Of a DNA stretch of 64,000 bases, positions 49,601 through 59,727 are shown one piece after another. Origin of the DNA: Ignavibacteriota bacterium (GTDB taxonomy: Bacteria > Bacteroidota > Ignavibacteria > UBA10030 > CAVZMI01); contig CAVZMI010000015.1 in the NCBI GenBank assembly GCA_963776275.1, forward strand, positions 96,001 through 160,000, given 5' to 3'. Position 1 is the first letter of the stretch. Each line of letters starts with the position of its first letter. Both the position numbers and the translations under genes were made by a program. The notes below the pieces were generated by a model. The model worked only from the letters and a program-made list of their open reading frames with translations. It had not been told where the DNA came from and did no database searches.

Positions 49601-50738
49601 TCCTTCAGATCTCACAAACAACCAGAAATTTCTCATCATCGGAGATCCATCGATTCTTCCACTGGCACCACGAGCATTAATAGTAATCGATAGTATTAAC
49701 GCCATAGGCGCAGGTGAAACCGGCACGATTCTTATTCCAGCCCTGAAAAAGACAACAGTCCAGGGTCACCTTCGCCCGCCTCTTGACGTTCCGGGCACAC
49801 AACCGATGCAAGTTTCATTTGTTGTCAGAGATGGAAATAAGCATGTATCTCTTGTTGATGAATTGGACGGCCATTTTGATTTTAACAAATCCGGTGAAAT
49901 ACTTTTCCGAGGAATTGTTACGGTCCCGAATGGAAAATATACCGGCACATTTATCCCTCCTAAGGATATCTCGTACTCGGATAATAACGGACGCATCACC
50001 CTCTATGCCAATGATGGTACTCAGGATGCAGTAGGGTATTCAAATTCTATCTTGATAGGAGCTGTAGACAGCACGACAGTTACTGATACACAGGGACCAC
50101 AAATTTCGCTCTTCCTCCAGTCACGGAATTTCCAATCGGGCGATGTTGTCAATGAAAATCCCACACTCTATATCGATCTCTTTGATGAAAACGGTATCAA
50201 CCTTTCAACGGCAAGTATAGGTCACGGACTCGATATGTGGCTTGATGAAGCGTCGAAAAGTGTTCCTTTATCAGAATATTATCGCAGCGCACCCGATTCA
50301 TATCAAAAAGGGACAATTGAATACCCGCTTCAATCACTCTCATCAGGCGATCATACGCTGAAGGTGCGAGCTTGGGATGTGTTTAATAATTCAACAACAG
50401 CTGAAACAAAATTCCGGGTTGTATCGAGTGACGTATTCGTTGTAACCGATGTCATGAATTATCCAAATCCATTCTCGTCACAAACAACATTTACATTCAA
50501 TCAAAATCAGATCGAAGGCGTCGATGTCGAAGTAAAAATTTATACAGTTGCCGGCAGATTAATCCGAACATTGAAAGAACCGGGAATATCCGAGAGTTTT
50601 GTACGAATCCCATGGGATGGAACTGATGGAGATGGATCGCCGCTTGCCAATGGTGTCTATCTGTACAAGGTAATTGTGAAAACTGTAAGCGGTGATAAAA
50701 CGCAGGAAGTCCTTGGCAAACTGGCAGTCCTGAAATAG
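46665..50738 (+). CDS. porU: Type IX secretion system sortase PorU (C25 peptidase)
   Basis: SVLASGEWYRIEV, IYNEFSSG..DPVAIRD, GHG and ATC catalytic dyad, C-terminal NYPNPF...NGVYLYK CTD. Confidence 0.92.
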   Translation: MECTGIQYRSWRNILYHYLWLFVVIITINSLCLFSQQVDPGWNVIRSTPSELIIEYRPVYLPSKEVHIGQQTFTTIDFLGSISFSYQHEGYPDIRFASSCIGVPSRTIHTTIIAATYDEVPGISLPPIQVMDGRINEAATENNRQKNPAFNQAAYSSMIYLPDTLARVIEIREVQQMLVANIEIFPVQFNAAAHSVRKYNRIVIQIQFGIPAVYTVPAASPSPILSVMLNKETARSWRTRLPVLKKVPTPSVLASGEWYRIEVKNTGLYKLDYTMLKIAGINVDQIDPRTIKIYNNGGRELPEPLSVSRPSDLVENSILVNGEEDGKFDPTDVILFYGRSPRGWTYDQLKKTFRHYINDYAESNYYWLTYNGVPGKRMSVVPETESQNPYRPSGIVGKIFYEEEMNKIILGGADGSGRAWYGPKLTSQLNSLSRRETLSDAIPGNPVRIRVKAVGRADQRTTMLVSQDNNALGSIAFSAASSSEEADEPGQVEFIGKVPTGTAQTMIQFQYGCQSVAAEAYLDWYDILYWRESRAINDELPFDAPDTNAVVLYHLDGFSSTDVKIFDVSDYANVKIMQMHAAALTGYELQVRASSGSISSYFAVVSSAYKTPLGIQKMANSNLHEIDPSADLLIITHKDFWDAASRLATYRNAAGRNSMKTAVVDVADIYNEFSSGQLDPVAIRDYIRLAYTSWKHPPKYVLLFGDGTYDFKNILGRGLEWIPPYETEESLNYIDSYTYDDFYVMLDLYSKLPTIAIGRITCRSLDEANIWVDKIINYETSTDFEEWRDLLVFCADDGLKSESQINSEPYHTEDTEALSNLSALKRFDQKKIYLVEYPTVLSSSGRTKPDAAEALINQWNRGALMISWMGHGNPEYWAHEHVFDRTKTIPRLNNGSRLPLVTAATCDFGHYDALEQSSAEDLASRKEGGSIVTIATSRPVFGSFNAMFMISLYKELLGRTDSIGQISRLGDAWIRAKQNPSDLTNNQKFLIIGDPSILPLAPRALIVIDSINAIGAGETGTILIPALKKTTVQGHLRPPLDVPGTQPMQVSFVVRDGNKHVSLVDELDGHFDFNKSGEILFRGIVTVPNGKYTGTFIPPKDISYSDNNGRITLYANDGTQDAVGYSNSILIGAVDSTTVTDTQGPQISLFLQSRNFQSGDVVNENPTLYIDLFDENGINLSTASIGHGLDMWLDEASKSVPLSEYYRSAPDSYQKGTIEYPLQSLSSGDHTLKVRAWDVFNNSTTAETKFRVVSSDVFVVTDVMNYPNPFSSQTTFTFNQNQIEGVDVEVKIYTVAGRLIRTLKEPGISESFVRIPWDGTDGDGSPLANGVYLYKVIVKTVSGDKTQEVLGKLAVLK

Positions 50739-50881
50739 AAACGTTGTCTGCACCGTCGCCATATCCATTTCAGCGGAATTATAGAAGTAGGATTAGTCCG
50801 CTATGCGCATCGGTATCGCGAGTCGGGTGTAAATATACCCTCCGCCTTTCTGGAAGAAGAATGGGTAAGAATCAATCCGGA

Positions 50882-51379
50882 TCAACGAATATTGTTTATG
50901 CGGTTCTTCGCACTATCGTGATTACTTTTCATGATGTTCGGAATGAGCGTGAAACGCCGGTTTTCATCCGATAGTTTGTTCTCTAGACCGATGTACTTTA
51001 GGTAATAGGCCTGGTTCATCTCCCTCATAGTGTTTGTTTGGGTCTTCGGGTCATTGGTCTTCGTTTGTACAGCCTTATTCAGATCTGCCTGCCATCGATT
51101 GGCGAGATCATAAAGTCGTTGGCTGGAGTTTTTCAGCCACAGGGTAAAACGATTCGCCTCGGTTTGTTCGGAGGCGGGAAGATTCGCAGGAAGAGGTTGA
51201 TTTGCAAGTTCTTGCAGAGCCTTTGCCGTCTGCCGTAATATCTCGATTCGCTGCCTAGCAAATTTGGGTGTCTCCATTTGTTTGTCCTGTCCGAACGTCG
51301 TGCCGTCTATGACAGGTATAATAGCCAGTGAAGAGATTAAAATAAGGTTACATAGGAACGAAGTAGTTTTGGATTTCAT
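50882..51379 (-). CDS. Secreted helical hypothetical protein
   Basis: AGAGG RBS, signal peptide, C-terminus ENRRFTLIPNIMKSNHDSAKNRINNIR. Confidence 0.75.
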   Translation of the reverse strand: MKSKTTSFLCNLILISSLAIIPVIDGTTFGQDKQMETPKFARQRIEILRQTAKALQELANQPLPANLPASEQTEANRFTLWLKNSSQRLYDLANRWQADLNKAVQTKTNDPKTQTNTMREMNQAYYLKYIGLENKLSDENRRFTLIPNIMKSNHDSAKNRINNIR

Positions 51380-51439
51380 TTTTTCCTCTCTGTCTATTAC
51401 ACCATCGTGGGGACGTTGTCAACAGCGTCCCCACATTTA

Positions 51440-51623
51440 TGTACCGGTGGCCCGATTCGAAGCGATCTCAGTAAATTGTTCGAGAAAGTCTTCACGATTT
51501 CTATAGGTGACTTCAGCCGTAAAAGTGCAAGGTTTAAACGAAAATCATAATCGCAACAGAATCATAACTGCGACAATATCTTCCGCTCGTGAGAGTTATG
51601 GGATTGAGTTGCAGTTACGATTC
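51440..51623. repeat. Degenerate tRNA-Met 3'-end core plus element terminus, copy 1
   Basis: TGTACCGGtGGcccGATTCGAA resembles the tRNA 3' end; downstream sequence aligns with 52588-52770 and ends in inverted repeat GAATCATAACTGC/GCAGTTACGATTC. Confidence 0.75.
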
Positions 51624-51655
51624 TAATTGCACAGGATTCTTTCATCCGAATGTCA

Positions 51656-52255
51656 TTACTGGACTGCATATCCTGCAGGAACTTTGAATTTTTCTTCTGA
51701 TACTTTTACATTTTCCTCTACTTTAACAGCTTTTTGTAATGTTTCAACACTTGTTGTCTTAACATGTAAATACATCAGAATCTTATTCCAACCTCCATAT
51801 ACAGTGACGGTTCCTTTTCCATCATCCGAGCCGAATGACTCACAATTCTTTCCAGCAATAGACATTGCAGGCATTTTTTTTATCTTACCCGACTGACGGT
51901 CTTTTTCAGTTCCGAAATCCGTCCATTCTATGCGTAATTCAGTACCCCTATATGCATCGCCCCGCTTGTAAGCGATTTTTTTTGTAGGGCTCACTGAATA
52001 TAAACTTTTTCCGTTGCTAAAGTAGGTTTCTTCCAATTTATTATCTTTAGAAAACGTTTCTCTGCATTCCTTCATACCGTAATCGTCGAAATACACAATT
52101 GTATTCTTTTTAATTTCCATTGTACCCACTTTCATAGTCATATCATATTTTACGATACCGGACTTGATATCGTATTTTTTGATCTGACTCCTGAGCGGAG
52201 ATGCAAGCATTAAAAATGTTGCACAGAATAGTAAAAATATTGTATAGGTTTTCAT
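51656..52255 (-). CDS. Secreted beta-rich protein (DUF4412-like)
   Basis: AGGAGG RBS, signal peptide, YFDDYG, IAGKNC, FKVPAGY. Confidence 0.75.
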   Translation of the reverse strand: MKTYTIFLLFCATFLMLASPLRSQIKKYDIKSGIVKYDMTMKVGTMEIKKNTIVYFDDYGMKECRETFSKDNKLEETYFSNGKSLYSVSPTKKIAYKRGDAYRGTELRIEWTDFGTEKDRQSGKIKKMPAMSIAGKNCESFGSDDGKGTVTVYGGWNKILMYLHVKTTSVETLQKAVKVEENVKVSEEKFKVPAGYAVQ

Positions 52256-52587
52256 TCGACCTCCTGACAGAAAAATAGACGATTATTGACGATAAAACTA
52301 ATGAATCTCGGCACGAATGGCAAGCTTTTTTAGCTTCCCATGTTGAATATTCGTTTGGTCTGGAAAACTCTGAGAATATACATATAAATATAGAGCCCCT
52401 CATCATCCACAGACAAGGGCCTTTTTTATTTCGTCGTAATGTATCAGTATTCTTCAGGCGAAAGAATAATGAAAAAGCCGAACTAAAACGAATCCGGCTT
52501 TCTTCTGCGCACAAACAATACGCTGTTTTAAATCAACAGCGCTCCTTTAAACATTCACAATTCTGAACTCTGAATTCACTATTTACA

Positions 52588-52770
52588 TGTACCGGGGGAG
52601 CGTCTTAAAACGCTTTCAGCAAATTGTCCGAGAGAGTATTCACAATTCCGGTAGCCGACTTTAGCCGGAAGTCTCGAAAAATAAAGCAATAATCGTAACA
52701 GTAACAGGATCGTAACTGCGACAACGACTTGCGCTCGTGAGAGCTGTGGATCTGAGTGGCAGTTACGGTT
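52588..52770. repeat. tRNA-Met 3'-end core plus element terminus, copy 2
   Basis: Exact TGTACCGGGGGAG core; CGTAACTGC...GCAGTTACG inverted repeat; shares GCTCGTGAGAG with copy 1. Confidence 0.8.
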
Positions 52771-52851
52771 TTCCATTGTTCCCCACTTTAATCCATATCA
52801 TCCTTTTTACAGACTTAAAATAGACCACTTTGGGGGGAAGGTCAGATACCC

Positions 52852-52992
52852 TCACAGAATTCCGAATATTTTTAAAACTATCACGAGAACACCTAAAGCC
52901 ATCACACAGAGAAGAAATATCAGTATAAATTTTTTTCCAGGACTTAATTCATCGGTCATTTGTTGTTGCTTTGAAGAATCATTATGTGTCAT
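52852..52992 (-). CDS. Small 46-aa C-terminally anchored membrane protein
   Basis: GGGAGG RBS; MTHNDSSKQQQMTDELSPGKKFILIFLLCVMALGVLVIVLKIFGIL. Confidence 0.6.
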   Translation of the reverse strand: MTHNDSSKQQQMTDELSPGKKFILIFLLCVMALGVLVIVLKIFGIL

Positions 52993-53111
52993 GATAACCT
53001 CCCATTTGGTGGAACACGTTAAAATACAAATGACATCGACATTCATCTACCGTAGATGAAATCGACGTATTGCATTCCTGACTACTGAATAATACTGTTA
53101 TAGGAAGAATA

Positions 53112-53462
53112 TCATGATACAGGCGGGTCTCTGGAAAGGTATCGGAGATAGATAGCCTGCGTAAATTGATTAACCTCAGGCTGAATGGGAAGTAATACAG
53201 AGATTGAGTGAATCACCAATCCATCGACAGCAATGATCGCTGCGGAATGGACTGTGGTCTCCTGAAGGAGATGCTTCTGTGGGATTTGGAAACGATGTTC
53301 TTTCGGAATTGGATATTTTGAATCGTGAGTGGGCGAACCATAGGTATACGCACTGTCGATAACTATTGTCGTTTCTGATTTCACGGATTGACCGGCATAT
53401 ATGGTCGTCGGAAATCCGGCAATGACAAAAATAAATATACTATGGAGTAATACAGATTTCAT
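53112..53462 (-). CDS. Hypothetical exported protein ending in an RxPP motif
   Basis: Signal-like N-terminus, His-rich middle, C-terminal YLSRDPPVS*. Confidence 0.55.
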   Translation of the reverse strand: MKSVLLHSIFIFVIAGFPTTIYAGQSVKSETTIVIDSAYTYGSPTHDSKYPIPKEHRFQIPQKHLLQETTVHSAAIIAVDGLVIHSISVLLPIQPEVNQFTQAIYLRYLSRDPPVS

Positions 53463-53690
53463 TGCGAGAAGATAAGGAATTCCTGTTCTACAAACAATAC
53501 ATTTTTCAAATGGCTTTCTTGCTTAGATCTCTCTAAATCGATTATGTCAATGAATTTAGAGTGAAGAATGGAAGGTTGAAAAGGAAAAAGAAAAAAAGGT
53601 GAGAATTTAGATATGATAATTAAAGGGCGGTTTTACTTTAGCCAGCCACCGAAACATTCACAATTCACTACTCACAATTCACTATTGACT

Positions 53691-53835
53691 TGTACCGGGG
53701 GAGGGATTCTCCGCCGCAATGGACCGAGCTCTGGAGGCGGATCAGCCTCACCGATTTATAATGCGTGGCTGAGAATACATACCATCCCTTCGGGATGGTA
53801 GTACTGCTCGCTCCGCTTGCTGCCCACGACCTACG
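53691..53835 (-). repeat. att-like 35-bp duplicate of the tRNA-Met 3' end, interrupted by two hairpin inserts
   Basis: TGTACCGGGGGAGGGATTC [63 bp] GAA [47 bp] CCCACGACCTACG; with inserts removed it is identical to 59137-59171. Confidence 0.9.
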
Positions 53836-53934
53836 TATTTCAATACTAAGCACAAGACGATGCGGGAAAAATCTAATGCTAAATCACAGCCGAGTTTTTA
53901 TTCACAAGTCAATCTTCACAATTCACTATTTGTT

Positions 53935-53949
53935 TGTACCGGGGGAGCG
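53935..53949. repeat. Additional tRNA-Met 3'-end core
   Basis: TGTACCGGGGGAGCG, identical to 52588-52602, preceded by TTCACAATTCACTA. Confidence 0.75.
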
Positions 53950-54340
53950 CCATGTAACGTCGGGAAGAATTCTCACTCCCTCTTTTTTGCTCGAAACACC
54001 CACTTTTTGTTGGGAAGAGTCATCTTTTCGGATTAATGACAAATCATTCCTACCTGTTCGTCTTCTAGAACTGCCAAGCGGATACATTCACGGGAATCTG
54101 CCTTGTATCTTGTCTTTAAACTTGTTACAGCAATACAACAAAGGTTCAGAAAAATCAATGCTTATAAACCTGTAAATGAAACAATTAACCAATTAAAACT
54201 AAAATCTAAGCCCGGGTTACGGCGGGTCGCTTAATTATTTTTTAAAAAACTATTGACATTAACTCATTTTTATACTAATTATGGTTAATAAAATTAACTT
54301 GTTTATATTTGTATCAATATTTATTTTTAAACATAAAACA

Positions 54341-54962
54341 ATGGACAAAACAATGGACAAAACAACTTTAACACCTGAAGAAAGTCTCTTGTTAATAACA
54401 AAGACAATAGAAGAGACTAAAAAAAGATTTGAAGAAAATGGCTTCATTATTATTATTTTGGGGCATACTTATCTTTTATTGTATCACTAAGTCAGTTTGT
54501 ACTCACAAAACTGGGAATAAACAAGATCGTTTATATAGAAAATTATACAATTCGTAACTGGACTGTTATTTTATACCCGTTGTTTGGTGGGATAATACAT
54601 TTAATATATGTTAAAAAAACATAAAAAAAATTACCCAAAACCATCATAGGAAAGATCATTGGAGCAATGGGTTGGTGATGGTTCTGAATTTTATGATATT
54701 AGGTTTTTTCTTTGGGGACACACTTGGTGGACGCCTTATCCCTATATTTTTAATTTTACTTGCCTTCTGGTGCATAATCAATGGAGTTTCAATTAGTTTT
54801 AAACCGCTTATAATTGGAGGTATTCTGTTAAATTTGATTGGATTTGCTGCTTTTCATATCAACTGGCAATACCAGCCGTTAATGCTTACAGCAGGATCAT
54901 TAGTAGCTTTAATAATTCCGGGTATATTACTCAACAAAAACAAAAAACAGGAAAATGTTTAA
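54341..54962 (+). CDS. Multi-pass membrane protein, frameshifted
   Basis: MDKTTLTPEESLLLITKTIEETK start and TM-rich end in ORF 54672-54962; breaks fall at T/A/G runs. Confidence 0.65.
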
Positions 54963-55244
54963 AGATTTAGACCCATATTACACTCGCAGCTTCGTTTGTC
55001 AATAGTCTCTATTTTAATGACAGTTGATGAAGCCAATTTTAGTTTTATAAAAGAAACTACTAAGGCTGCAGCCGGCAATATAAGTATCCAAATAAAAAAA
55101 TTACAGGAGGCGGGATATGTTAAAGTAAAAAAAACTTTCAAAAATAATTATCCAAATACTACTATATCAATAACAAGTAAAGGAATAGAAGCATTTGAGG
55201 ACTATGTAAATAATCTTAAAAAATATATAAATCCCCAAAAATAA
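54955..55244 (+). CDS. Winged-helix (MarR-like, HTH_34) transcriptional regulator; frameshift near 54974
   Basis: MFKDLDP-ILHSQLRLSIVSIL...GNISIQIKKLQEAGYV...TSKGIEAF. Confidence 0.85.
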
Positions 55245-55293
55245 TTTTTTTACCAAAATGGTTAATATTATTAACTACTTAAAAGGATTAATT

Positions 55294-56987
55294 ATGAAAA
55301 CTACAATATTTATCTTAATGATTTCCATCCTGATGGAATTAAGTTGTGCTCAAAATAACTCGCAAAAGGTTGATGGGCAGATTCTGAAAAATACATTTAG
55401 TAAAGACGACATCCAGGCATTAAACTTCTATCGTCAATATAGTTCGTTTACCGATCCGGGAGAATATAAATATTTGTATAAAAATCTGCCTGATTCATTA
55501 CCGGAGCTTTGCAGTTTAATAAGATCCCAGTTTATTCATCCCTATGAGGAATTGCCAAAATATCGTGAACAAATTCCCAAAGAGAGATGGGATGAAACAT
55601 TAAAGTATCCAACAGTTAAATCGATTTTGAAGGGTCTTTTATCCTATGACTCCAGGGGTTTAGTGAAAGATCGGAAACCTGAAAACCGATTAGTACTTGC
55701 TTGCCGGGAAAATGCAATTTTACTGGCGTCAATATTAAAATATCGTGGCATTCCGGCCAGGGTTCGTGGTGGTTATGCTACTTATTTAATTCCTGACTTT
55801 CATACGAATCACGCAATTTGTGAAGTATGGAATGAAAATGACAAGCGTTGGATGCTTGTTGACCCTAGCACAGGTATGATTGATTTCAGCAGAGATAAAT
55901 TTGACTTTAGTAACGATGCATGGTTAAAAATGCAAAAGAAGGAAATAGATCCAAACTTATTTGGGATGCCTGGCCAACATCCGGGAGTTCTTTCGATAAT
56001 TGCGATAGTTTGTACTGATCTGGCATTCATATTGGGTACTGAATATACTATTTATCAATATGCACCAATATTGGATTATGCCTTTCAAAACAATAATCAA
56101 CTAACTTCAAAACATATAGAAACCCTAAACAGAATAAGTGAATTAATGAAATCGCTTGATGCCGATAACCTTTCGAAATTACAAGATATTTATAACAATA
56201 CACCTGAAATTCAAATTACAAAGACATTTGAATCTGATACAAAAAAATCAGAAAATTCGAAAATAACGCGAAGGCTAAAAATACTTCAATAAATAAACCA
56301 GATATTGAATTTGTAGATATACCAGGAGGTACATTTATGATGGGAAGCCCTGTTACCGAGCAGGGAAGAAAAGATGACGAGATACAACATCAAGTTACAC
56401 TGAGCGCTTTTAAAATGAGTAAATATCCTATCACCTTTGAGCAATACGATTTATTTTGTGACGCGACAGGAAGAACTAAACCCTGGGGACGTGAACAGGG
56501 AAATATTCCGGTTTCACGGGTTACCTGGTATGATGCGGCTGCATTTGCCGAGTGGATGGGTTGCAGGCTGCCAACTGAAGCAGAATGGGAATATGCAGCT
56601 CGTGCAAATACAACCACTCCTTTTTACACTGGTGATTGCCTGACATCTGATCAAGCAAATTTTAATGGGGAAGAACCTTATACAAATTGTGCTAAAAGTG
56701 AAAACAGAAATAAACCATTGCCAGTGGGTAGTTTTCCACCCAATGCCTTTGGATTATATGATATGCATGGTAATATATTGCAATGGTGCAATGATTGGTA
56801 TGGTGAATACAACGTAAATGAAAAAATAAATCCGAAAGGACCTGAAAAGGGAGCCAATAAAATAATTCGCGGTGGCGGCTGGCATAACGCGGCATGGGAA
56901 TGTCGGTCAGCCTATCGAGGAGGAGTAGGTCTTTATCCAGGAACCAGAGGTACGGGTATTGGTTTTAGGATAGTGAAAGATAAATAA
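55294..56987 (+). CDS. Transglutaminase-like lipoprotein probably fused to an FGE/SUMF1 domain; frameshift near 56260
   Basis: CREN...NHAICEVW...LVDP triad; alternate frame reads INKPDIEFVDIPGGTFMMGS into RLPTEAEWEYAAR and NAFGLYDMHGN. Confidence 0.8.
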
Positions 56988-57005
56988 TAATCAAAAAGAA
57001 ACTAT

Positions 57006-57933
57006 ATGATTGATGTTTCAAACCTAAGAAAAACATTCGATACCATTGAGGCGTTGAAAGGTATTTCATTCAACATTCAACAAGGTGAATGTTATGGACT
57101 TTTGGGTCCCAATGGTGCAGGTAAAACAACTACGATCTCCATCATGAGTACAATAGTAGAACCAAATGAAGGAGAAGTGAGAATTGCCGGATATGATTTG
57201 AAGAAGAATCCGTTGGAATGCAAGAAAAACATTGGCGTTGTTACACAGGAAATAGCACTTTATAATGAGCTCTCGGCATATGATAACTTACTATTTTGGG
57301 GAGGCTTATATAATGTTCCGAAACCGGAATTAACTAAGCGTATTGATGAAACAGTAAACCTGCTCGGACTGACCGACAGGAAGAATGATAAGGTAAAAAC
57401 CTATTCCGGTGGAATGAAACGCAGAATTAATATCGCTTCTGCATTGCTTCACAGGCCTAAAGTTCTGTTTATGGATGAACCTACTGTGGGTATTGACCCT
57501 CAGAGCCGGAATTTGATTTTTGAAGTGGTGGAAAAGCTGCATAAAGAGGGAATGACAATTGTTTATACCACTCATTATATGGAAGAGGCTGAGCGTTTGT
57601 GCGATCGTATCGGAATTATTGACAATGGAGAAATCATTGCGCAGGGAACATTGGATGAATTAAGGACATCAGGTTCGATGAAAGAAACCGTTGTAATCTC
57701 TTATACAAATCTTACAGATGAACGTTACAATACAATAGAAAAAGAATGGAATGATCTCCAACGTTTTGAAGACACGATACATTTTTATTCCATGAATATT
57801 CAGGGTGATTTATCAAAAATAATATTGAAGTGCAATGACGTTTGGTCTTGATATCCGGCATATTGATATCAAAAAGATTAACCTTGAAACCATATTTTTA
57901 AGTTTAACCGGAAAAAAACTAAGAGACAAATGA
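57006..57933 (+). CDS. ABC-2 type exporter ATP-binding subunit; frameshift near 57842
   Basis: GPNGAGKTT, YSGGMKRR, MDEPT; corrected end NLETIFLSLTGKKLRDK* overlaps the next ATG. Confidence 0.92.
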
Positions 57934-58727
57934 TAAAACTAGTTAAGAAAGATCTGAAATTATTCTTCAGTAATAGGCAAGACATGATGCTTACTTTTGT
58001 ATTGCCCATAATATTTATTACCCTGTTTGCTTTTGTTTTCGGGAAAATGAACAATTCTGAAGAAAATCATTTAGTGAGTCTTGTTCACTCGGTGGCAGGT
58101 ACATCAGTAATGATGCTATTATTTTCAGTAGCTGGAATAGGTGGAAGTTTTTTGGATGAAAAGCAGGAAGGTATGTTGAAGAAGTTACTTTGCTCACCCA
58201 TACCTCCTAACTATATCCTTTTTGGGAAATTGGTATTTGCTAATATCATTTCCATTATTCAGCTGTCAATCATGTTTATTTACGCCTGGCTGTTTTTTGG
58301 CTTAGACATTATGCACCATCTCCCTTCTCTTATACTTATAATTTTAACAATGGCATTTGCTTGTTCCGGTTTTGGTATAGTTCTTGCCTCATTTGCTAAA
58401 ACACGCCAACAAGTTCAGGGATTTTCATCAATAATTGTACTTATTATGAGTGGTATTGGAGGTAGTATGATCCCTATATTTGTAATGCCTGAAATTATGC
58501 AAAAGATAGCTGTTTTTACAGTTAATTATTGGGCGATACAGGGGATTTATGACATCTTCTGGAAGCTTGTTCCGATTAACAGATATTACATTCTTATCAA
58601 GAGTTTTTGTTTTAATTGGCATTGGAACTTTATTGAATTTCATAGCTCTTCAGATGTACAAGAGAAATATTTTAAAGATTGTTTAAATGGGCAAAAAAGT
58701 GCTGGCTATAACATCGTGTATAAGTAA
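57930..58727 (+). CDS. ABC-2 type permease (3' end probably frameshifted)
   Basis: DEKQEGMLKKLLCSP, GIGGSMIP; multiple TM helices. Confidence 0.88.
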   Translation: MIKLVKKDLKLFFSNRQDMMLTFVLPIIFITLFAFVFGKMNNSEENHLVSLVHSVAGTSVMMLLFSVAGIGGSFLDEKQEGMLKKLLCSPIPPNYILFGKLVFANIISIIQLSIMFIYAWLFFGLDIMHHLPSLILIILTMAFACSGFGIVLASFAKTRQQVQGFSSIIVLIMSGIGGSMIPIFVMPEIMQKIAVFTVNYWAIQGIYDIFWKLVPINRYYILIKSFCFNWHWNFIEFHSSSDVQEKYFKDCLNGQKSAGYNIVYK

Positions 58728-58837
58728 TGGCGGGGTTTATAGCGTATTTAACGTCTCGTTTAGCAGCGTAGGTCTGTAACGTGTGATACGGACGCAGCTC
58801 TGAAGTCCCTTACTGTTCCTACCGTCGACCGTTAGTC
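58705..58837 (+). other. Degenerate attC-like site
   Basis: GCTATAAC...GTTAGTC ends about 133 bp apart at the end of the permease gene; partial inner complementarity (AGTAA/TTACT). Confidence 0.4.
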
Positions 58838-58980
58838 GCAATTTCACGCCAAGCAATTGGTACTTTACAAACATTATAACTATGGAAGAAAATTTTTTCA
58901 TTAGAGATAGTTCACATATCGGATACTGTTCATTTAACCAAAATACAAAATCCCCCAAAACATCTGGAGGAATTTTCACT

Positions 58981-59136
58981 CAATTCTTCAATCTTCAATC
59001 TTCCCGCCTACGCTAAAGCTTCGGCGGGTGAACCGGGCATTATCAATCTTCATTCTTTCCGTCCAAAAAACATGGCGGATTTCGTTCAGCCCGCCTATGG
59101 CGGGCTTCACTCAACAATCTTAAATCTTCAATCATT
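58981..59136. repeat. TCTTCAA heptamer repeats interleaved with three GC hairpin elements
   Basis: CCCGCC-tacgctaaagcttc-GGCGGG, TCCGtC...GGCGGA, AGCCCGCC-tat-GGCGGGCT between (A)ATCTTCA units. Confidence 0.75.
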
Positions 59137-59138
59137 TG

Positions 59139-59212
59139 TACCGGGGGAGGGATTCGAACCCACGACCTACGGATTATGATTCCGACGCTCTAACCAGCTG
59201 AGCTACCCCGGC
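59139..59212 (-). tRNA. tRNA-Met (CAU), elongator-like; CCA not encoded
   Basis: GCCGGGGTAGCTCAGCTGGTTAGAGCGTCGGAATCATAATCCGTAGGTCGTGGGTTCGAATCCCTCCCCCGGTA folds as a cloverleaf; Ile2 not formally excluded. Confidence 0.93.
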
Positions 59213-59272
59213 ATTGAATTGCGATGATGAAAAATGGCGTCATTCAACGACGCCATTCATATGACCGGAAAA

Positions 59273-59301
59273 AAGATAAGGAAAATATACTCGAAAAGCA
59301 A
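59273..59301 (-). promoter_or_regulatory. sigma70-like promoter for the intact tRNA
   Basis: TTGCTT-N17-TATCTT. Confidence 0.5.
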
Positions 59302-59403
59302 TGGAGAAATGCCGTTCGAAAACAACTCCGGCTCTCGTGCATCCTCAAGGACAGAGGCAATTCAGAGGAGATGGTCAAAGGCTGTCTTTGCTCTCAATAA
59401 ATG

Positions 59404-59687
59404 TTCCGGGGGAGGGATTCTCCGCCACGACTGATGATACGAGAAGGCGGATGCCTGCCCGCCGCTCCGCTCTTGCAGGCGGGCGCCTCTGGCGCAGAAC
59501 ACTGGGCTGCCTTCTGCAGCCCAGTACTGCTCGTCCCTCAAGGGACTTGCTGCCCACGACCGGAGTTTATCCCGCCGTTATTTGGCGGGAGATTATGATT
59601 CCGACCTGTCCCGATTGCTCTTGATCGGGACGCTCTAACCAGCTGCCTGCCCGCCGTGCTTCATCTTTTGGCGGGAGCTACCCCGGC
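59404..59687 (-). pseudogene. Second tRNA-Met(CAU) copy interrupted by five palindromic inserts
   Basis: Six collinear segments (59404-20, 59497-99, 59553-61, 59591-605, 59632-45, 59676-87) reproduce 70 of the 74 nt of the intact tRNA, with one substitution. Confidence 0.92.
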
Positions 59688-59698
59688 GCCTACTTTTC

Positions 59699-59727
59699 AA
59701 TATAAAAAATAAATCCTTCGGTTGCAA
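59699..59727 (-). promoter_or_regulatory. sigma70-like promoter for the interrupted tRNA copy
   Basis: TTGCAA-N17-TATATT, 11 nt upstream of tRNA position 1. Confidence 0.6.

Follow-up and report, generated by a model that had tools for sequence, protein, structure and literature searches.

A split copy of tRNA-Met(CAU), here named S, was characterized in the genome of an Ignavibacteriota bacterium (GCA_963776275.1). It lies at 59403-59687, minus strand, of a 64,000-nt stretch (positions 96,001 to 160,000 of contig CAVZMI010000015.1), referred to hereafter as the window, and consists of six collinear pieces that together span the full length of the tRNA and are separated by five short inserts made of GC hairpins. 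S is probably a redundant, decaying tRNA copy that has been colonized by position-specific miniature elements resembling repetitive extragenic palindromes (REPs). The study genome (G000; the contig holding the window is C15) is a metagenome-assembled genome (MAG) of 3.70 Mb in 38 contigs, with 45% G+C, 96.4% completeness and 5.3% contamination, in which ARAGORN found a tmRNA and 46 tRNA genes.

Read in the sense of the tRNA and in linear tRNA numbering, S starts with residues 1-12 (59676-59687), followed by a 30-nt insert (59646-59675), residues 13-26 (59632-59645), a 26-nt insert (59606-59631), residues 27-41 (59591-59605), a 29-nt insert that replaces residues 42-45 (59562-59590), residues 46-54 (59553-59561), a 53-nt insert (59500-59552), the trinucleotide TTC (59497-59499), a 76-nt insert (59421-59496) and residues 58-75 (59403-59420), all on the minus strand. 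tRNA-Met carries a 20a residue, and linear n corresponds to canonical n-1 from position 22 on. With this taken into account, the inserts fall at canonical positions 12/13, 25/26, about 41-45, 53/54 and 56/57, each ambiguous by 1 nt, which are the sites named in an initial annotation made from the sequence alone. As that annotation also stated, the pieces are otherwise nearly unmutated: linear 42-45 (CGTA), part of the anticodon stem, are missing, and an A replaces the T of the intact gene at canonical 72. Direct reading and spliced alignment of the intact tRNA-Met agreed on this structure. The alignment scored 85, as compared with a mean of 16.4 and a maximum of 34 for 1500 random genome windows and a maximum of 30 for 500 shuffles; it was run in 450-nt windows with a strong insert penalty, unlimited insert length having given noise. 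A chance origin of the alignment is excluded. Neither ARAGORN nor Rfam, even at E <= 1, called S; both called the intact tRNA-Met(CAU) alone (59138-59212, minus strand), confirming that standard tRNA finders miss the locus.

The 30-nt insert at 12/13 is a hairpin of CCCGCC, a 14-nt loop and GGCGGG with a CAGG tail; it carries a tag, CCTGCCCGCC, that occurs in two of the S inserts. At 25/26 the 26-nt insert forms a GTCCCGAT..ATCGGGAC hairpin, and the 29-nt insert combines a TCCCGCC..GGCGGGA hairpin with TAAACTCC. The 53-nt insert at 53/54 is a two-hairpin module, CAGC-hpA-GAGCAGTAC-hpB-GTG, and the 76-nt insert at 56/57, in the T loop, is a chain of GC hairpins, the last of which is TCCGCC..GGCGGA. 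As hairpins, four of the five are far more stable than shuffled sequence (z = -2.3, -5.0, -5.8 and -6.4). The 76-nt insert as a whole does not fold beyond shuffles (z = -0.6), although it contains the expected TCCGCC..GGCGGA stem as well as CCCGCC..GGCGGG. By direct reading, GC hairpins are absent from the 190-bp spacer between S and the intact gene (59213-59402, minus strand) and from the ~100 bp upstream of S, again in agreement with the initial annotation; the spacer holds an AT-rich hairpin and then a T run at 59231-59262. A sigma-70-like site, TTGCAA-17-TATATT, matching at 9 of 12 positions, lies 12 nt upstream of S (59699-59727, minus strand). The site is present as had been noted; the region contains three promoter-like sites as against 1.2 +/- 1.3 in shuffles, so that the site is better called a putative than an intact promoter.

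The same order of promoter-like site, split copy, spacer (~92% identical) and intact tRNA (identical) is found in a genome of the same genus, G001, where both promoter hexamers are also identical. Run X2, of an unrelated peat metagenome, yielded a 1580-nt contig with the G001 form of the locus, and a 197-nt contig of run X1, which may be the source sample of G000, spans the 30-nt insert and its two junctions with 100% identity. The public read runs gave contigs only; none of them contained half of the sampled G000 words, the best shares being 0.22 and 0.19. The split locus is not an assembly artefact, because G001 and the independent X2 contig carry the same architecture.

Comparison of the two genomes revealed gain and loss of inserts. 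Recognizably the same inserts are retained by G001 at three of the five S sites: the 26-nt insert is identical at 26 of 26 nt, the 29-nt insert differs at one base outside an added 34 nt, and the 53/54 module is of the same type with other stems. The added 34 nt are an extra insert nested in the loop of the 29-nt hairpin; they are absent from G000 and present, letter for letter, in the X2 contig. The 30-nt insert is absent from G001, in which the D arm is contiguous, and from the X2 contig; most of the T-arm inserts also differ, G001 having other hairpins in place of the 56/57 insert and of the second 53/54 hairpin. The 12/13 insert therefore provides an empty/filled pair, with the empty site GGGGTAGCT/CAGCTGG in G001 (the slash marks the junction). 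In this one clean pair there is no target duplication beyond the 1-nt ambiguity. Over the ~71 nt of tRNA pieces, S has undergone no change in G000 and one in G001 since the two genomes split, the acceptor stem of the G001 copy having one further change besides A72. Counted by eye, the S pieces and shared inserts differ at 2-3 positions in ~125 nt as compared with 20 in 293 nt of flanks; this is suggestive of selection on S but not significant, and it was not used as a sign of function.

Several of the inserts belong to multi-copy families that recur at fixed tRNA coordinates. The 12/13 family (CCCGCC, 14-nt loop, GGCGGG, CARG) gave 51 matches in 43 public loci, all of them in MAGs labelled Ignavibacteria or Bacteroidota. 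Nine of the 51 stand exactly after tRNA nucleotide 12, in copies of tRNA-Asp, -Gly, -Met and -Val and in other partial copies; wherever an intact gene is visible at the locus, the copy adjoins it. Exact 31-nt copies of the 30-nt insert itself lie at C4:10-40 and C4:1120-1150, and C23 holds a 94% copy. At the 25/26 site, related hairpins occur in five tRNA-Gly(GCC) copies and in tRNA-Thr copies, and a hairpin also sits at this site in G024, another genome of the order.

The T-arm families were more restricted. The 53/54 family has the form CRGC-hairpin-GAGCAGTAC-hairpin-GTRTG, and all six of its G000 copies lie in T arms (two each in tRNA-Met, tRNA-Lys and a second tRNA-Met, Met-C29). It is also present in G001 and in a third genome, G002, with compensatory stem changes; over three tRNAs and three genomes pairing is kept in this way, and the single-stranded GAGCAGTAC linker is conserved. 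In the 56/57 family a module of two hairpins, with a conserved loop, precedes TCCGCC..GGCGGA, and the whole stands between GGTTC and RAATCC in two tRNA-Thr copies and in tRNA-Pro, -Ser and -Met copies. All four G000 matches to its strict pattern are in T loops (Thr twice, Pro and Ser), the Met copies carrying variants. The strict loop pattern was found in one of 277 genomes of the order, G000, and the G001 variant differs by 1-2 nt, which argues for a young, lineage-specific family and not for absence elsewhere. The TCCGCC..GGCGGA hairpin has 95 copies in G000. The initial annotation had named occurrence in neutral DNA without a tRNA-motif bias as a result that would refute it. For the 12/13 family, most matches of which lie elsewhere (see below), this applies in part; the 53/54 and 56/57 families were found in T arms alone. 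In every aligned tRNA-embedded copy the modules are in the tRNA sense orientation. Other genera have unrelated hairpins at 15/16 and 56/57.

S is one of many interrupted copies. All 46 G000 tRNAs were searched against their own flanks by BLAST and spliced alignment, and 15 of 37 alignments were dropped, either for a length above 330 nt or for overlap with another annotated tRNA. The curated set holds 22 hairpin-interrupted or partial copies beside 14 tRNA genes, in the orientation of the gene in every case. They include tandem arrays (tRNA-Gly(GCC), five copies at an 86-bp period; tRNA-Gly(UCC), three copies; initiator tRNA, four copies at a 349-bp period), 3' parts that closely follow the gene (Pro, Lys, Thr and Ser) and 5' parts or full copies upstream of it (Met, Ser-GGA, Asn, Arg and Gly-CCC). 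GC hairpins occur at 16.0 per kb within the copies (48 in 2997 nt) and at 3.4 per kb in 200-nt flanks (25 in 7423 nt), a ratio that overstates the number of events because tandem copies are not independent. Orthologous tRNA-Met loci with interrupted copies were present in six of 20 genomes of the order, from four families (G000, G001, G002, G005, G018 and G024), with inserts after 15 and at 25/26, 53/54 and 56/57. The density of generic hairpins was given up as the main test and family-specific counts were used: hairpins with 6-bp stems gave 3088 matches in G000, about half of them expected by chance, and those with 8-bp stems were enriched just two- to threefold near tRNAs under a crude mask of open reading frames (ORFs).

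G000 has an intact tRNA gene for 19 amino acids, and its tRNA-Asp is cut by a contig end. tRNA-Asp, the sole specificity missed by ARAGORN, lies at that end (C25:1-59). In relatives (loci L004 and L014) a hairpin-interrupted 5' copy of tRNA-Asp stands just upstream of tRNA-Asp, and such a copy may lie behind the assembly break at C25.

A search for candidate mobilisers, which the initial annotation had proposed, yielded nine Y1_Tnp (IS200/RAYT-like) matches, two IS110-type genes, seven tyrosine recombinases and two TnpB genes in G000; no reverse transcriptase was found in this genome. Two Y1 ORFs that were tested pass the NCBI cut-off for IS200/IS605 TnpA. The Y1 genes are each flanked by GC hairpins of their own, which some of the insert families resemble. 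Five of the 28 G000 copies of the CCTGCCCGCC tag lie within 1 kb of a Y1 gene (four genes in all); the DNA within 1 kb of Y1 matches makes up 0.63% of the genome, giving a ~28-fold enrichment. The hairpins could be handled in trans, as single strands, by Y1 transposases, or they could spread by microhomology-guided copying between tRNA arms. Elsewhere in G000, a Y1 (IS200/RAYT-like) ORF that stands directly upstream of tRNA-Arg(CCU) is itself split by a long tandem array of ~30-nt units (CTCCCCAGATAGTGAGGATAGGATGAGGAT; C37:44773-46300). At C22:9836-10576 a tyrosine recombinase gene is directly followed by a GIY-YIG ORF, and at C23:235672-236259 a fragment 82% identical to the C terminus of that ORF overlaps a second recombinase locus.

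Spare tRNA copies appear to have several sources. Directly 3' of the intact tRNA-Met is an island-like segment of ~8.4 kb (50737-59137) that is absent from G001, with flanks aligning at 95-98%. Within it lies a second partial copy of tRNA-Met, distinct from S (linear 38-75; 53692-53835, minus strand), with the 53/54 and 56/57 modules. Its tRNA 3' part forms a direct repeat bounding DNA absent from G001, as a remnant of an attachment (att) site requires. The modules of the island copy are 93.8% identical over 112 nt to those of the split copy in G001, although the island copy retains T72 and CGTA, unlike the G001 copy (A72, CGTA lost). The last 12 nt of tRNA-Met (linear 64-75) recur as a fragment at 53936-53947, also on the minus strand. 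No Pfam or NCBIfam recombinase was found among the 7 + 4 island ORFs scanned, and none of the seven Phage_integrase matches of G000 is located there; four small island ORFs match no Pfam or NCBIfam family. The segment also contains a transglutaminase-like gene, an FGE-sulfatase-like gene, an ABC-2 transporter pair and several ORFs without a family. A GTGAATNGTG-type repeat (for instance TAGTGAATTGTGAGTAGTGAATTGTG) follows the 3' end of six of the 46 tRNA genes (e.g. C15:164950-164985 in G000); eight of its 48 genome copies are on the same strand <=80 nt downstream of tRNA genes, and it is also found after both partial island copies of tRNA-Met (window 53660-53690 and 53915-53930).

In eight of 13 matches, or five of ten distinct G000 loci, a small GIY-YIG gene has an intact tRNA on one side and a partial or interrupted copy of that tRNA on the other; tRNA-linked loci of this type are C20:153652-154163, C21:75316-75840, C37:15169-15977 and C37:20354-21388. 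At the orthologous tRNA-Met of G005 (L082, 1501-1866) a GIY-YIG gene likewise separates the intact tRNA from the copy. One of the five G000 loci is a fourfold array: at C10:40586-42065 there are four tandem 349-bp units, each with a 110-codon GIY-YIG ORF whose 3' end runs into a variant initiator tRNA. This variant has a 15-nt TCCGCC..GGCGGA hairpin in place of its D loop, and an intact initiator tRNA heads the array. These arrangements suggest tRNA-linked mobile nuclease cassettes. No GIY-YIG remnant was detected in the spacer between S and the intact gene (tblastn, E <= 1). A further arrangement was seen at C18:99155-99489, where an older tRNA-Leu(UAA) copy is split in the T loop by a ~250-nt insert that contains an intact tRNA-Leu and is bounded by the inverted repeats CCCGCCGTCCCGACAGACG ... 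CGTCTGTCGGGACAAGCAGGCGGG.

According to the reading that we favour, S would be a redundant and probably non-functional tandem paralogue of tRNA-Met(CAU), colonized at five sites by small, GC-rich palindromic elements that lack ORFs. The elements would belong to several families, several of them tied to single tRNA coordinates (12/13, 25/26, 53/54 and 56/57), and would move as DNA. The spare copies themselves would arise by tandem duplication, by small GIY-YIG cassettes that separate an older tRNA copy from a newer one, and by islands at tRNA 3' ends. Elements would be seen solely in spare copies because insertion into a single working gene would be lethal. S would have no function of its own, and its promoter may be conserved because it also serves the downstream intact gene. 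The initial annotation had proposed mobile hairpin elements that target tRNAs, with the redundant gene as a sink. Multi-copy families, turnover between congeners and the recurrence of the same coordinates in other tRNAs bear this out in part; mobility, a responsible enzyme and the role of a sink are putative. More tentatively still, and with doubts that outweigh our confidence, we propose that the elements may recognize tRNA-gene DNA, either through conserved motifs of the D and T arms or through a single-stranded fold like a cloverleaf, and insert with single-nucleotide precision at four sites, tRNA-duplicating cassettes (GIY-YIG genes and islands) supplying the targets.

A number of observations weigh against this reading. 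The 12/13 hairpin lies outside tRNAs, in unrelated repeated contexts, in 42 of its 51 matches, and there it has no common flanking target, so a simple target-sequence rule fails to explain the exact site. Strict GC hairpins are common in other non-coding DNA of G000 (208 in ~427 kb). The subtypes of the 56/57 module track the T-loop flank, GAATCC in Ser and Met as against AAATCC in Thr and Pro, which is equally compatible with microhomology copying and with transposition. Covariation of hairpin stems across copies is also what functional RNAs would show. G001 shows good conservation of both the spacer and the promoter-like site. From the 5-8% divergence of the flanks ~2.5 changes per lineage would be expected in the tRNA pieces of S, and although the shortfall is not significant, the scarcity of substitutions leans towards constraint or very recent turnover. 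The S locus has no transposase, integrase or GIY-YIG gene, and the REP_Tyr_transpos model scored below its cut-off in G000 ORFs (37.9 versus 80). Either placement by an enzyme or microhomology copying between tRNA arms may be at work; the 56/57 subtypes fit both.

The strongest of the other explanations, though an unlikely one, is that S and its relatives are functional structured RNAs, in which a tRNA-like scaffold with additional arms, transcribed from the conserved promoter, would serve as a leader of the downstream tRNA-Met, as a decoy for enzymes that bind tRNA or mobile elements that target it, or as a platform for the processing of hairpin RNAs. The identical promoter hexamers, the ~92% identical spacer and the nearly unchanged tRNA pieces in G001 are consistent with this, as are the constant sense orientation of the modules and the pairing of the ends of S with each other in the minimum-energy fold. 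The compensatory changes in the 53/54 hairpins and the conservation of their GAGCAGTAC linker also speak for it, but covariation is equally expected of hairpin elements that fold as DNA. Many of the copies are arbitrary truncations (36-74, 40-76 and 1-30) or stand in tandem arrays, inserts are gained and lost between congeners, and the acceptor stem is damaged (A72 and the additional G001 change) with four nucleotides of the anticodon stem gone. No Rfam family scored above its gathering threshold at S. In RNA run X6 contigs cover the intact tRNA and not S, which, as contigs from one run, is a weak point and no evidence either way.

It is somewhat less probable again that the hairpins are neither autonomous nor trans-mobilized elements with a tRNA target, and that a few chance insertions have been copied between tRNA-like sequences by microhomology-guided template switching or short-patch gene conversion. 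If D-arm and T-arm motifs were the copying flanks, the register of the inserts would be kept automatically, and the confinement of the 53/54 and 56/57 modules to tRNA arms, the agreement of the 56/57 subtypes with their flanking loops and the similarity of the island module pair to that of G001 despite the differing tRNA pieces are all in line with such copying. The shared flanks are just ~7-15 nt long, however, and the 12/13 hairpin occurs in many non-tRNA contexts and near Y1 genes. Other families of the order have unrelated hairpins at these coordinates, which would require repeated first insertions there.

It is very improbable that S is a bacterial multi-intron tRNA gene, whose transcript would lose the intron-like inserts and become a working tRNA-Met. 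In favour of this stand the collinear, nearly unmutated pieces, the promoter-like site and one RtcB ligase gene in G000, though RtcB was matched in ten of 14 control genomes too. No match to the splicing endonuclease (tRNA_int_endo) was found in G000, which is 96.4% complete, and the control search matched four archaea. Without its inserts S has incomplete stems, lacking the four anticodon-stem nucleotides and carrying a G1-A72 mismatch. The inserts, at 26-76 nt, are too small for group I introns (core > 200 nt) and no Rfam intron family was matched; an intact gene lies 190 bp away and most sister copies are truncated. A chimera or misjoin in a repeat-rich MAG, to which the 38 contigs, the 5.3% contamination and the tRNA-Asp at a contig break might point and which the initial annotation had set out as grounds for rejecting its proposal, can be dismissed in view of the independent assembly of the same architecture in G001 and the X2 contig and of the X1 contig that spans the 30-nt insert.

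The elements that we favour as the source of the inserts resemble known systems in part. REPs and similar sequences are usually seen as intergenic filler with loose target preferences. Like those of REP/REPIN-RAYT systems, the elements described here are small GC-rich palindromes, imperfect and ORF-less, that are numerous, often chained and persistent in the lineage; as a possible further likeness, related hairpins flank single-copy Y1 transposase genes. They differ in standing at fixed nucleotides of tRNA copies and not at the 3' ends of genes, and the G000 ORFs pass the IS200/IS605 TnpA model whereas REP_Tyr_transpos falls below cut-off. GTAG and CGTC end tags define two REP superfamilies (PMC3733652); the ends of the S inserts are GCCTG.., TCC..GGA and similar, and have no GTAG/CGTC tag. 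A second parallel is with mitochondrial GC clusters, single or double hairpin elements that enter intergenic DNA and structural RNA genes and stay in transcripts (PMC2800124); both are GC-rich hairpins spreading in an AT-richer genome (PMC2800124). The S inserts differ from these in being located in a bacterial chromosome, in their specificity for tRNA coordinates and in the presence of candidate transposases.

For miniature derivatives of IS200/IS605 (PATE-type), which have two subterminal hairpins, no terminal inverted repeats and a tetranucleotide target, the likeness lies in the two subterminal hairpins without terminal inverted repeats and, tentatively, in the fixed orientation and the lack of target duplication at the one clean pair. 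At 15-76 nt the modules here are far smaller, their hairpins directly abut the junctions, and the apparent target is an 8-11-nt tRNA motif or a structure and not a tetranucleotide; no cognate TnpA was identified for the hairpin modules in G000. Archaeal multi-intron and split tRNA genes, such as those of Thermoproteales, contain bulge-helix-bulge introns that are cut by EndA, restoring a complete tRNA. Their interruptions, too, occur at several non-canonical positions, some of them in the D and T arms; at S, in contrast, four nucleotides are missing, an intact paralogue is present and no EndA was found. tRNA-targeting integrases leave att-site remnants, and phage T4 has a GIY-YIG endonuclease, SegB, in its tRNA cluster. 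The tRNA 3' partial repeats that bound the strain-specific 8.4 kb and the GIY-YIG genes between old and new tRNA copies recall these systems, which account for the spare copies but not for the hairpin inserts, and no such gene is present at the S locus. No account of hairpin-interrupted bacterial tRNA gene copies appeared among the top-ranked titles of a literature search, a weak negative.

Several hairpin families occupy exact coordinates in many tRNAs, in several families of one order, and this fidelity points to a mechanism that recognizes tRNA-gene DNA or to homology-guided copying. For annotation, the interrupted tRNA loci are invisible to tRNA finders, break assemblies and mark the entry sites of islands and GIY-YIG cassettes. 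If the copies were transcribed and functional, they would constitute a new class of expanded tRNA-like RNA. If recognition of tRNA DNA is real, it may be a source of programmable, structure-guided insertion enzymes, and it would represent a new form of target selection for miniature elements and a self-contained parasitic cycle around tRNA genes.

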